Source: Escherichia coli (GTDB lineage: Bacteria > Pseudomonadota > Gammaproteobacteria > Enterobacterales > Enterobacteriaceae). From it: 64,000 nucleotides of DNA. Numbering within the stretch: position 1 is the first letter of the stretch; each line of letters opens with the position of its first letter. The position numbers were made by a program. Shown here piece after piece: positions 25,301 through 37,300 of this stretch. The DNA lies in assembly GCF_050320075.1 (NCBI RefSeq), contig NZ_CP190018.1, one strand, 5' to 3'.

Positions 25301-28300
25301 TCATAGTCACATCAAGTGACTATGATCCGGGTGACAACAGGAATAATTATTGCTGCTTAACGAACAAACTGGCGAAGCTGAACAGGCTGGCGGCGCTAAA
25401 TATCAGTTCAATACCCACCAGTGTGGAAACCAAAGTTACAGACACCATCGGCGTTGCACCAAGGAATATCCATGCAATGACGATATCCAGCACACCAATA
25501 ACGAGCTGTAGCCAGCTGCCTTTCATTGAACGCTGACGATACCAACTCATCAGGCGAATAACCCCTGCAACACAGAACAAACCGGCAATAAATGCCGCAA
25601 TGGCAAAAATGCCCAGCTCCGGTGCGCGGATGAAGAAATAGCCGATCAATAAATAGGCGACTGCGACGAGGAAACCGGATAATACCGGCCAGAAATTATG
25701 ACTGCGGTTGCTGAATAATCCAACAATAAGCGCAACGCCCGAGCAGATTAATAATGCACCCACTACCGTGCTTAAAATATCGCCAGAGACGAACGGGAAA
25801 CTGATACACAGCAACCCGACGATAAACAGCAACACGGCAATAAACTGGATTGCTCTGCGATGCTTTTTCAGCATCTCCAGATCAAACTTCAAAATTGTTG
25901 CCTTATCTATATATAACATAGAACCACCCTATAAAATTAAGAAGAAAATCCCCTGCTATCAATCTATGCCAAAAACGCGTCTAAGAATGCAGTCGATTTA
26001 ATAAAAATTTCCTAATTACAGTATCTGATGCATCTGTAACTCATTGTATTGAAATAAAAATATCTGATTTTGATATTTTCCATCAACATGACATATACAG
26101 AAAACCAGGTTATAACCTCAGTGTCGAAATTGATTCGTGACGGCTCTTTCACTTTATAGTTGAGGATATTACGATGAAAAAAGTATTAGGCGTTATTCTT
26201 GGTGGTCTGCTTCTTCTGCCAGTTGTGAGCAATGCAGCGGATGCGCAAAAAGCAGCCGATAACAAAAAACCGGTCAACTCCTGGACCTGTGAAGATTTCT
26301 TGGCTGTGGACGAATCCTTCCAGCCAACTGCAGTTGGTTTTGCTGAAGCGCTGAACAACAAAGATAAACCAGAAGATGCGGTTTTAGATGTTCAGGGTAT
26401 TGCAACCGTAACCCCAGCTATCGTTCAGGCTTGTACTCAGGATAAACAAGCCAACTTTAAAGATAAAGTTAAAGGCGAGTGGGACAAAATTAAGAAAGAT
26501 ATGTAATTCCGGGAATGCGTTACATCGTACTTCCTTGCATATTGAACAGGCCGGAATATCTTCTTTAAAAGCAGCTATTCCTCCTGTTCATATATAATCT
26601 CTATATTGAATGGGTTACAAAATGAATATTTCATCTCTCCGTAAAGCGTTTATTTTTATGGGCGCTGTAGCGGCTTTGTCACTGGTGAACGCACAATCTG
26701 CGCTGGCAGCCAATGAATCCGCTAAAGATATGACCTGCCAGGAATTTATTGATCTGAATCCAAAAGCAATGACACCGGTTGCATGGTGGATGCTGCATGA
26801 AGAGACAGTATATAAAGGTGGCGATACCGTTACTTTAAATGAAACCGATCTCACTCAAATTCCTAAAGTGATCGAATACTGCAAGAAAAACCCGCAGAAA
26901 AATTTGTATACCTTCAAAAATCAAGCATCTAATGACTTGCCGAATTAATGAGGTACAAGTAAAAAGGAGTAGCAAGTTGAGCCATCTTGCTGCTCCTTTT
27001 TGCTTTTTTATATGACAGCAGAATTTATTATACGTCTTATACTCGCAGCAATTGCCTGTGGCGCTATTGGCATGGAAAGGCAAATGCGCGGCAAAGGAGC
27101 AGGGTTACGCACACATGTATTAATTGGCATGGGAAGCGCCCTGTTTATGATTGTTTCGAAATATGGTTTTGCTGACGTGCTGTCTTTAAATCACGTCGGA
27201 CTGGACCCCAGCCGTATTGCTGCTCAGGTGGTGACGGGCGTCGGGTTTATCGGCGCAGGTAACATTCTCGTTCGTAACCAAAATATTGTAGGTCTGACGA
27301 CGGCAGCGGATATCTGGGTGACCGCCGCCATTGGTATGGTTATTGGTAGCGGTATGTACGAACTGGGCATTTATGGTTCAGTGATGACCTTGCTGGTGCT
27401 GGAAGTCTTCCATCAATTAACCTTCCGCCTGATGAACAAAAATTACCATTTACAGCTGACATTAGTGAACGGTAATACGGTATCAATGCTCGACTGGTTT
27501 AAGCAGCAAAAAATAAAAACTGATTTAGTTTCGTTGCAGGAAAATGAAGATCATGAAGTGGTCGCCATTGATATCCAGCTTCATGCCACAACGTCGATAG
27601 AAGACCTGTTGCGATTATTAAAAGGTATGGCAGGGGTGAAAGGCGTTTCAATTAGCTAATCTTTATAGTTATTTATTCACAGGAGTACCAGAGCGGTACT
27701 CCTGTTGGTTTTAATGATCGAGGACGATCAGGGGTGAATGGCTGGCAGGATCTTTAAGTACGGTAATATCCGCGCCGTAAAGCATGGTCAGCGCCTGCTG
27801 TGTCAATACGTCCTGTGGTTTACCATTTGCGATAACCTTTCCTTTTTGCATTAATACAACACGGTCTGCATAACGCGCGGCAAGATTTAGATCGTGCAAT
27901 ACGCAGCAAACATTGAACTGCCGTTCGTGAACTAGCTGGCGTAATAAACGAAACAAGTGCTGCTGATGGTGAATATCCAGCGCCGAAGTTGGTTCATCAA
28001 GAAATAACCATTTCGGTGAGGGAGTAGGTTCCCAGAGTTGCACCAGCAGGCGCGCTAATTGCACGCGCTGTTGTTCACCACCGGATAATTGCCGATAGTC
28101 ACGGTTTGCTAACGCCTGACAGTCACATAACGCCATTATTTGTGCTGTTTCATTATCCTGATTACCAGTGCGATGCGGATGCCGCCCCATCTGGATAACT
28201 TCTTGTACGCTGAATGGAAACGCCATGTGGCTATTTTGACGCATCACGGCCCGGTGTTTCGCCAGTTCAGTAATCGACCATTCATTTAATGGCTTATTAA

Positions 28301-34300: not shown

Positions 34301-37300
34301 TCAGCCCAGTCTCTGAGCGGTTTAGTGCGTTACTACAACAACGACGCGCGTGAACCAAAAAATCCGCAGACCGTTGAAGCTTCTGATAGCAGCAACCCGA
34401 TGGTTGATCGTTCAACAATTCAACGCGATGCGCAGCTTTCTTATAAACTCGCCCCGCAGGGCAACGACTGGTTAAATGCAGATGCAAAAATTTACTGGTC
34501 GGAAGTCCGTATTAATGCGCAAAACACGGGGAGTTCCGGCGAGTATCGTGAACAGATAACAAAAGGAGCCAGGCTGGAGAACCGTTCCACTCTATTTGCC
34601 GACAGTTTCGCTTCTCACTTACTGACATATGGCGGTGAGTATTATCGTCAGGAACAACATCCGGGCGGCGCGACGACGGGCTTCCCGCAAGCAAAAATCG
34701 ATTTTAGCTCCGGCTGGCTACAGGATGAGATCACCTTACGAGATCTGCCGATTACTCTGCTTGGCGGAACCCGCTATGACAGTTATCGCGGTAGCAGCGA
34801 CGGCTACAAAGATGTTGATGCCGACAAATGGTCATCTCGCGCGGGGATGACTATCAACCCGACTAACTGGCTGATGTTATTTGGCTCATATGCCCAGGCA
34901 TTCCGCGCCCCGACGATGGGCGAAATGTATAACGATTCTAAGCACTTCTCGATTGGTCGCTTCTATACCAACTATTGGGTGCCAAACCCGAACTTACGTC
35001 CGGAAACTAACGAAACTCAGGAGTACGGTTTTGGGCTGCGTTTTGATGACCTGATGTTGTCCAATGATGCCCTGGAATTTAAAGCCAGCTACTTTGATAC
35101 CAAAGCGAAGGATTACATCTCCACGACCGTCGATTTCGCGGCGGCGACAACTATGTCGTATAACGTCCCGAACGCCAAAATCTGGGGCTGGGATGTGATG
35201 ACGAAATATACCACTGATCTGTTTAGCCTTGATGTGGCCTATAACCGTACCCGCGGCAAAGACACCGATACCGGCGAATATATCTCCAGTATTAACCCGG
35301 ATACCGTTACCAGCACCCTGAATATTCCGATCGCTCACAGTGGCTTCTCTGTTGGGTGGGTTGGTACGTTTGCCGATCGCTCAACACATATCAGCAGCAG
35401 TTACAGCAAACAACCAGGCTATGGCGTGAATGATTTCTACGTCAGTTATCAAGGACAACAGGCGCTCAAAGGTATGACCACTACTTTGGTGTTGGGTAAC
35501 GCTTTCGACAAAGAGTACTGGTCGCCACAAGGCATCCCACAGGATGGTCGTAATGGAAAAATTTTCGTGAGTTATCAATGGTAATCATCTGCCCCGATAT
35601 TTCGGGGCATTTATCTGGAAGGAAGAGAGACAATGAACCACTACACACGCTGGCTTGAGTTAAAAGAACAAAATCCCGGAAAGTACGCGCGTGACATCGC
35701 AGGTTTAATGAATATTAGCGAAGCAGAACTGGCATTTGCACGCGTCACGCACGATGCGTGGCGGATGCGCGGCGATATCCGTGACATTCTGGCGGCGCTC
35801 GAAAGTGTTGGCGAGACCAAATGTATTTGTCGTAATGAATATGCAGTCCATGAGCAAGTTGGTGCGTTCACAAACCAGCATTTGAACGGACATGCCGGAT
35901 TGATCCTCAATCCACGCGCGCTGGATTTGCGTCTGTTTCTCAATCAATGGGCCAGTGTTTTTCACATTAAAGAAAATACGACTCGTAGCGAACGCCAGAG
36001 TATTCAGTTCTTTGATCATCAGGGCGATGCATTACTAAAAGTTTATGCCACCGACAATACCGATATGGCGGCATGGAGTGAGCTTCTGGCACGGTTTATC
36101 GCCGATGAGAATACGCCGCTTGAGTTAAAAGCCGGTGATGCGCCAGTCGTTCAAATGCGAGCCGATGCCAGTGTGGTTGAGCAAGAGTGGCGGGCGATGA
36201 CCGACGTTCATCAGTTTTTTACGTTGCTCAAGCGCCACAACCTGACGCGCCAACAGGCGTTCAATCTGGTGGCAGACGATTTGGCCTGCAAAGTATCCAA
36301 CAGTGCGTTGGCGCAAATTCTTGAATCTGCACAGCAGGATGGCAATGAAATCATGGTGTTTGTTGGCAACCGTGGCTGCGTACAGATTTTCACTGGCGTG
36401 GTAGAAAAAGTGGTGCCAATGAAAGGTTGGCTGAATATTTTTAACCCGACGTTTACTCTTCATCTATTAGAAGAGAGCATTGCTGAAACCTGGGTAACCC
36501 GTAAACCTGCTAGTGACGGTTATGTGACCAGTCTGGAATTGTTTGCCCATGATGGTACGCAGATAGCGCAACTTTATGGTCAACGTACAGAAGGCGAACA
36601 GGAGCAAGCGCAATGGCGTAAGCAAATTGCTTCGCTGATACCGGAAGGCGTTACTGCATAACGTATAATTAACGGGAGGTCTGGCTATTTATTGCTGGGC
36701 CTCTTTATATTAATCAATCGATCACACCAGATAATCAATATGCTGATGGCGTACCAACTCATTGATCCGCTTAAGATTGAGGATCATCATGATATTGTGT
36801 TTATGGCAGTAGAACGTTTTTAGCGATATTTTCAGTTTCTCCAGAATATCTTCCGTTGTCATTTGATTCGCAATGCAGCTCAGAACCTGATGCTGCTTGC
36901 GCGAAAGGGACACATCCGCTTCAGGCACAGAGCAGTAACTGCCATTGATGAGTGCGACAAAGTCGATGATGGTGATAGTTCGCGGAACAAAGGTCACCGG
37001 TACTTTCCCCAGGCAGCGTTTAATATTAAAGGGGGAGAAAATAATCACATGGACAGGTTTTAATCGTTCAATTTGAGTGAGCAAATTAGAATGAAATACA
37101 TTATTCATTAATGTATCAATAATGACGAAGGCATGCTGATGCAACATTACGTCGATCTCTTCTTCGTTCTGTATATGAACGACATTACCTTTACTCAGAA
37201 TGTTTTTCATCGCAGTGAAGAACATCGTATCCCTGGTAATTATAAGAAACATAACCGACTCCTGGTGCGGACATTAACTTTATAATCAGTTTGCCAAAGG

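Follow-up and report, generated by a model that had tools for sequence, protein, structure and literature searches.

An intact chu haem-uptake locus between yhiD and dctR of Escherichia coli and the possible antiquity of its occupied and empty alleles

The closest described systems to the locus studied here are the shu locus of Shigella dysenteriae and the chu loci of Escherichia coli O157:H7, known as O-island 140 of EDL933/Sakai, and of uropathogenic E. coli (UPEC). They consist of the same eight haem-uptake genes, in the same order, on the same strands and at the same site between yhiD and dctR (yhiF), and they share with it divergent promoters under Fur control, a leader of 291 nt and the FourU RNA thermometer. 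The locus and its map position in E. coli K-12 were reportedly described by Wyckoff et al. in 1998. As O-island 140, the chu cluster has its insertion site in the acid fitness island, with yhiF (dctR) and yhiD as neighbours (PMC10540162), and enlarges this island from ~13 kb to ~22 kb (PMC9144400). Within the species, all strains (100%) of phylogroups B2, D, E, F, and G have chu, and those of A, B1, and C are without it (PMC8281228).

Related as well are clusters of the hemRSTUV or hmuRSTUV type, with the prototype in Yersinia and further examples in Citrobacter, Enterobacter, Kluyvera, Lelliottia, and Buttiauxella. In these clusters the receptor and HemS-family genes stand in the same order as here and are followed by genes of the binding protein, permease and ATPase; in contrast to chu, they run in one direction, carry no chuW, chuX or chuY, and are not located in an acid fitness island. 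Similarity to the hutWXZ genes of Vibrio cholerae concerns ChuW and ChuX, members of the equivalog families HutW and HutX. The third gene differs, as ChuY is an NADPH-dependent anaerobilin reductase and not a HutZ-type protein, and V. cholerae is without a ChuS homologue (PMC10114669).

In this work we examined a stretch of 64,000 nucleotides from E. coli contig NZ_CP190018.1 (assembly GCF_050320075.1), further referred to as the window. Its segment 27663-36721 can be assigned with high confidence to an intact chu (shu) haem locus, O-island 140, which is probably present by descent after one early insertion. Because the placement of O-island 140 and its phylogroup distribution have been published, the locus and its position are already known, and in the window it is intact and typical. 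Compared to the shu and chu prototypes differences are allelic only, with a leader of the enterohaemorrhagic E. coli (EHEC)/Shigella type in a background resembling sequence type 38 (ST38) and phylogroup D. Relative to the literature consulted, a single, mildly new point emerges: both alleles of this site, empty and occupied, appear to be ancient.

Annotation was transferred from the RefSeq record of E. coli YZLc1-3 (NZ_CP123240.1, 249871-313870), which differs from the window in 3 of 64,000 positions and is therefore readable 1:1 in window coordinates. The initial annotation placed chuV-U-Y-X-W-T on the minus strand and chuA-chuS on the plus strand between yhiD and dctR, in an interval (27660-36721) that corresponds exactly to the distance from the yhiD stop codon to the dctR stop codon. 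The eight genes, their order, strands and location agree in full with the RefSeq annotation and with the K-12 comparison. All of them are full-length open reading frames (ORFs), none disrupted, and the locus is a 100% match to annotated chu loci. Genes chuW, chuX, and chuY are placed between chuT and chuU, in the divergent operon together with chuT, chuU, and chuV. The proposed relationship of the products to Chu/Shu proteins is upheld by matches to curated Chu/Hut/Hmu families and to the solved structures of ChuS, ChuY, ShuT, and HmuU (Table 1). No NCBIfam hidden Markov model scored above its cut-off for ChuS, ChuT, ChuU, ChuY or DctR, and solved structures or RefSeq names were used for these instead; the structure matched by ChuT, PDB 2R7A, is presumably that of ShuT.

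To compare junctions, the window was aligned base by base with K-12 MG1655, in which the stop codons of yhiD and dctR are 41 bp apart. Homology stops after position 27662 (TAA TCT) and restarts at 36722, in the dctR stop codon, so that 9,059 bp in the window stand opposite to 38 bp in K-12. Relative to K-12, the chu segment is a replacement and not a clean insertion. The adjacency of yhiD and dctR in K-12, assumed in the initial annotation, holds, as only the 41-bp spacer separates them and the chu segment is missing; the junctions described there as short have spacers of 51 bp (left) and 60 bp (right).

We have also addressed the question of mobility. Neither an integrase nor a transposase gene was detected in the locus, whose eight ORFs are all haem genes, with spacers of 12-60 bp apart from a regulatory region of 681 bp, and no tRNA or tmRNA gene was found in the whole 64-kb window. 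As for flanking direct repeats, the two junctions have no word in common that exceeds 8 nt (TCTTTATA; null mean 7.0, 95th percentile 9), and the search for terminal direct or inverted repeats and for a target-site duplication at the junctions gave nothing above chance. In the absence of tRNA genes, of integrase or transposase genes and of repeats above chance, the chu locus is not an island in the mobile sense. Among classical criteria of pathogenicity islands, only a composition unlike that of the surroundings and a patchy distribution were observed. With regard to composition, GC content is 50-55% in the island and 34-45% in its flanks; the AT-rich part is the flanks, and the island is compositionally ordinary.

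Distribution of the two states was assessed in 5,426 complete E. coli genomes, considered occupied if at least 80% of a 10.5-kb query was held, and empty if the K-12-type junction was contiguous. The locus is present in 2,234 genomes (about 40%), and 3,179 are empty and share one junction type. The two classes add up to 5,413 of the 5,426 genomes, so that the site is cleanly dimorphic, with only one type of empty allele. In some otherwise ordinary chu-negative E. coli contigs (L096, 10001-10483; L097, 1642-2124), dctR encodes 160 aa instead of 176 and aligns at only 88.7% owing to an internal difference.

The closest strain with published typing, NMBU_W05E18, is near-100% identical over the 10.5-kb query and belongs to ST38, phylogroup D (PMC7311804). 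Presence of the locus shows only that the strain studied here is a member of a chu-positive phylogroup, most likely D and ST38-like. The initial annotation took the island as a mark of a chu-positive lineage, in agreement with the phylogroup distribution (PMC8281228), and named EHEC, extraintestinal pathogenic E. coli (ExPEC) and Shigella as such lineages; this second part needs refinement, as pathotype is not readable from chu alone and the nearest typed strain is ST38 of phylogroup D, not EHEC or Shigella.

Within E. coli, the island of the window is 97.5% identical to that of O157:H7 and 96.3% to that of a UPEC-type strain, and the flanks are 97-99% identical; divergence of the island therefore matches divergence of the flanks. 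To find the locus in other species, one genome per species was scanned with ChuS and mapped by tblastn. This search revealed the full locus at the same yhiD-dctR junctions in L009 and L010, two representatives of Escherichia other than E. coli. They are 89-94% identical to the window in the island and 85-94% in the flanks, and 89% identical to each other. In Escherichia sp. MOD1-EC7003 (L008; flanks ~96%), chuA-chuS is all that is left between yhiD and dctR. The segment corresponding to window positions 27668-33172 (chuVUYXWT) is there replaced by a truncated repeat resembling the enterobacterial repetitive intergenic consensus (ERIC), and a second, full ERIC-like element of ~125 bp resides inside the chuA leader. 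Both repeats (L008 5886-5972 and 6283-6403) are putative ERIC elements, judged by resemblance to the consensus. A chuAS-only junction of the L008 type was found in none of the 5,426 complete E. coli genomes. Contexts in L009, L010, and L008 indicate an old island and speak against its recent insertion. In another occupied lineage (L095, 3750-5731), chuA is split into ORFs of 514 and 146 aa and is probably a pseudogene.

Empty sites outside E. coli were found in a search for DctR homologues combined with inspection of their context. Contig CU928158.2, which we take to be E. fergusonii ATCC 35469, has an empty site with a 73-bp spacer, too diverged to align with either allele and informative of the empty state only. 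Empty is also the Escherichia lineage L092-L094, with a spacer of 42 bp and flanks 85-89% identical to the window. In the Escherichia-like L098 (1143-2063; flanks 75-84%), dctR adjoins hdeB, and neither yhiD nor chu is present.

The 41-bp spacer of K-12 is homologous to the spacer of L093, a genome with flanks ~13% diverged from the window (global score 11 vs null -7.0 +/- 3.5; 0/5,000 shuffles). When the 38/41-bp K-12 spacer was searched for in the islands of five lineages, scores were equal to the null mean and no significant match was obtained. Comparing empty with occupied E. coli, flanks are near-identical up to the junction, without any imported diverged tract, and the spacers are ~50% different. 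In trees of flank genes, the empty strains K-12, avian pathogenic E. coli (APEC) O78 and E2863 are nested among the occupied E. coli strains, where they cluster with O157 (occupied; 99-100% bootstrap), and in the three-gene tree the empty L093 is sister to the occupied L009 (100% bootstrap). Mixing of alleles is visible in the local tree in these two groupings.

Taken together, the comparisons support with moderate strength that the island entered the yhiD-dctR spacer once and long ago, when E. fergusonii and L098 had already split off, followed by persistence of both alleles or by their exchange via flank recombination; we infer that the window carries the occupied allele by descent. The yhiD-dctR site may accordingly represent a trans-specific presence/absence polymorphism, in which both the occupied allele and the original empty one, with a ~40-bp spacer of its own, survived speciation or recurrently crossed lineages by recombination in the flanks, a proposal that we regard as plausible but short of probable. 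Several points speak against this history. Nesting of the empty strains of A, B1 and C type with O157, taken alone, suggests loss. A search limited to the junction spacers gave a borderline inverted match of the K-12 spacer to the hairpin in the chuS-dctR spacer (6-20/2,000 shuffles, with no correction for the roughly twelve comparisons made), which makes the exact insertion point uncertain. In addition, the history is based on a local tree of ~1.1-1.9 kb, on a few non-coli lineages and on one alignment of a 41-bp spacer.

Two other histories are disfavoured because the junctions are common to diverged lineages and the K-12 spacer is homologous to that of a chu-less lineage. According to one of them, the island is ancestral to E. 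coli and was simply deleted in the ancestor shared by phylogroups A, B1, and C, so that the K-12 junction is a deletion scar and no empty target site. The position of the empty strains in the tree, with the occupied L008 and L010 outside, would fit such a loss, as would the one junction type in all 3,179 empty genomes, and the ERIC-like replacement in L008 shows that partial loss does occur at this site. Deletion, however, cannot create 38 bp that the island allele is without, and these have no significant match in the five islands searched, yet are homologous to the spacer of a lineage as diverged as L093; nor would it explain spacers ~50% different between flanks that are near-identical up to the junction. 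We consider this history improbable, and its variant of an ancestral island with simple loss in K-12 was dropped because empty sites with a homologous spacer exist outside E. coli.

The other history, a recently acquired pathogenicity island that was inserted independently or spread horizontally in EHEC, ExPEC, Shigella and the lineage of this strain, could account for the patchy distribution within E. coli and for the GC content of the island, unlike that of its immediate flanks; horizontal transfer of the locus was reportedly proposed by Wyckoff et al. in 1998. In that case near-identical islands would be expected across diverged lineages, and the opposite is observed: island identity is close to flank identity both within E. 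coli (96.3-97.5% vs 97-99%) and in L009 and L010 (89-94% vs 85-94%). Moreover, junctions are identical in every occupied genome examined, including lineages with flanks diverged by 4-13%, no integrase, transposase, tRNA or significant terminal repeat accompanies the locus, and presence tracks phylogroup and not pathotype (PMC8281228). Recent acquisition is thus highly unlikely. From the initial annotation, which described the island as inserted, the structure is retained, and probably also an insertion deep in the history of the site; a recent event in this strain is not, since the same junctions occur in lineages with 4-13% diverged flanks.

Table 1. Coordinates of genes, regulatory sites and hairpins of the chu locus and its flanks, in window positions
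Feature	Position	Strand	Basis or description
yhiD, MgtC/SapB family, acid fitness island gene flanking chu on the left	27012-27659	+	RefSeq; NCBIfam NF007431, 400.6 bits (cut-off 214)
Segment without counterpart in K-12 (O-island 140, chu locus), 9,059 bp	27663-36721		base-by-base comparison with K-12 MG1655
Perfect 11-bp hairpin with 5-nt loop, followed by TGGTTTT	27679-27705		-24.4 kcal/mol, z = -4.65; 0/200 shuffles fold as well
chuV, haem ABC transporter ATPase	27711-28481	-	NF010068 equivalog, 394.8 bits (cut-off 261)
chuU, haem ABC transporter permease	28478-29470	-	RefSeq name ShuU/ChuU; PDB 4G1U (Yersinia HmuU), 431 bits, full length
chuY, anaerobilin reductase	29519-30142	-	PDB 5FFQ and 5GUY (ShuY-like/ChuY), 442 bits, residues 1-207; function from PMC10114669
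chuX, cytosolic haem carrier (HutX family)	30142-30636	-	TIGR04108, 209 bits (cut-off 110)
chuW, radical-SAM methyltransferase, anaerobic haem ring opening	30649-31986	-	TIGR04107, 569 bits (cut-off 400); function from PMC10114669
chuT, periplasmic haem-binding protein	32006-32920	-	PDB 2R7A (haem-binding protein), 540 bits, residues 49-304
Fur box upstream of chuT	32944-32962		<=3 mismatches to Fur consensus
chuA promoter-like TTGATC, 17-nt spacer, AATAAT	33274-33302	+	overlapped by Fur box 33294-33312
chuA 5' leader, ~291 nt, EHEC/Shigella allele type	33311-33601	+	start inferred from published leader length (PMC9002310)
shuA/chuA FourU RNA thermometer over ribosome-binding site and start codon	33573-33604	+	Rfam RF02597, 60.1 bits (gathering score 58)
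chuA, TonB-dependent outer-membrane haem/haemoglobin receptor, 660 aa	33602-35584	+	TIGR01785, 588 bits (cut-off 317); RefSeq ChuA/ShuA
GC-rich hairpin followed by TTTAT, chuA-chuS gap	35590-35609	+	terminator-like match, 8 pairs, 6 of them G-C
chuS, HemS-family haem oxygenase/haem-handling protein	35633-36661	+	PDB 1U9T and 4CDP, 748 bits, residues 1-342
Hairpin with G-U pairs, followed by UUUAUAUU	36675-36704	+	-18.7 kcal/mol, z = -2.78 on the plus strand; weaker on the minus strand
dctR (yhiF), acid fitness island gene flanking chu on the right	36722-37252	-	RefSeq; 97.6% identity to K-12 dctR

Origin of the genes was approached through ~75 other Enterobacteriaceae representatives (L011-L087), in which the cluster has the order chuA, chuS, chuT, chuU, chuV in one direction. 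Identity of their proteins to those in the window is 76-89% for ChuA and 65-85% for ChuS, 59-66% for ChuU, 48-55% for ChuV, and only 31-37% for ChuT. Because ChuA and ChuS are close, ChuT, ChuU, and ChuV distant, and ChuW, ChuX, and ChuY missing in the clusters of other Enterobacteriaceae, the Escherichia locus appears to be a mosaic in which two modules, chuAS and chuTWXYUV, differ in ancestry.

Scanning the 64 kb for the Fur consensus with at most three mismatches revealed two matches, both over the divergent chuT and chuA promoters, with 0.01 expected by chance. Position of the predicted chuA promoter fits the published 291-nt leader (PMC9002310). The 19-mer of the chuA Fur box and 29 nt around the chuA start codon are invariant in 7/7 Escherichia versions compared, and the thermometer hairpin is invariant in all lineages compared. 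The chuA promoter, the Fur box and the last ~100 nt of the leader are unchanged even in lineages diverged by ~10%. The leader as a whole is 97.6% identical to that of O157 and 82.7-83.0% to those of UPEC-type strains, a dimorphism concentrated in its middle part (33320-33520), although coding regions of chu are 95-99% identical. This dimorphism has already been published, with 83.4% identity between EHEC and UPEC chuA leaders (PMC9002310). When a common RNA fold was tested for the dimorphic mid-leader, compensatory change was found in 0/73 predicted pairs.

A hairpin on the yhiD side, announced in the initial annotation at 27676-27710, is real, with 11 perfect pairs in the segment 27679-27705. 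No other site of the region is as terminator-like, and the hairpin resides in island-specific sequence between the convergent genes yhiD and chuV. The hairpin is kept in O157, in the UPEC-type strain MS20677, and in L009 and L010, and is missing from K-12, in which the spacer shows no comparable structure (z = 0.02 and -0.99). It is likely the intrinsic terminator of yhiD, with the T-tract on the plus strand, and possibly serves chuV as well. The hairpin downstream of chuS, strong on the plus strand only, is the probable chuS terminator. Between chuA and chuS, which are separated by 48 nt, the GC-rich hairpin is possibly a partial terminator or attenuator; chuAS is described as bicistronic (PMC9002310). 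We also observed a GC-rich palindrome (GCGCGGACATGCCGCGC) at 29495-29511, within the 48 nt that separate chuY from chuU. This palindrome and the hairpin in the chuA-chuS gap may be internal attenuators of the two operons.

The way in which the locus would operate can be outlined from the named families and from the literature. Iron limitation is expected to release Fur from its boxes at the chuT promoter and at the divergent promoter of chuA, and the FourU thermometer at the ribosome-binding site would act as a translational gate on chuA, open at 37 C. The small RNA CyaR and Rho also control the chuA leader (PMC9002310). By homology, ChuA, powered by TonB, would take haem through the outer membrane, ChuT would carry it across the periplasm and ChuUV would import it to the cytoplasm, where ChuS would be responsible for aerobic handling or degradation of haem. 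Under anaerobic conditions, ChuW is suggested to open the haem ring, yielding anaerobilin and releasing iron, ChuY to reduce anaerobilin, and ChuX, the HutX-family partner, to carry haem (PMC10114669).

Several features were observed elsewhere in the window. The segment 38217-39440 holds an intact ORF of 407 aa in DNA with 32-34% GC, the K-12 counterpart of which is a pseudogene disrupted by IS5. Between this ORF and arsC, a permease and an ArsR/SmtB regulator form a pair (40020-41425) that is present here and in strain 201609, and missing from the O157 and MS20677 loci. Rfam matches include GadY, the small RNA ES205, and two AgrB-family antisense RNAs beside dinQ (17940-18053, 23833-23904, 43834-43917, and 44068-44151). 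ES205 lies between mdtE and gadE, opposite in strand to a coding sequence annotated as hypothetical protein (23743-24021), and for this reason the latter call may be spurious. Downstream of yhiN, the segment 55976-64000 starts with a truncated TnsA-like gene (55976-56596), IS1 (56613-57310) and a TOPRIM-domain remnant (57365-57508). They are followed by annotated silver and copper resistance genes, copM, silE, silS, silR, silC, cusF/silF, and silB, and the whole looks like a decayed Tn7-like element that carries the sil cluster.

As a factor of virulence and fitness, the chu locus is well recognised; it supplies haem iron in the host under aerobic as well as anaerobic conditions. The standard phylogroup PCR of E. 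coli uses chuA as its first marker. The existence of two ancient alleles would bear on the evolutionary reading of this phylogroup marker, leaving the identity and function of the locus unchanged. If the proposed history is true, phylogroups A, B1, and C never “deleted” chu in the usual sense, and chuA, the anchor of Clermont phylotyping, would track an ancient allele and not a gain or loss that defines a clade.

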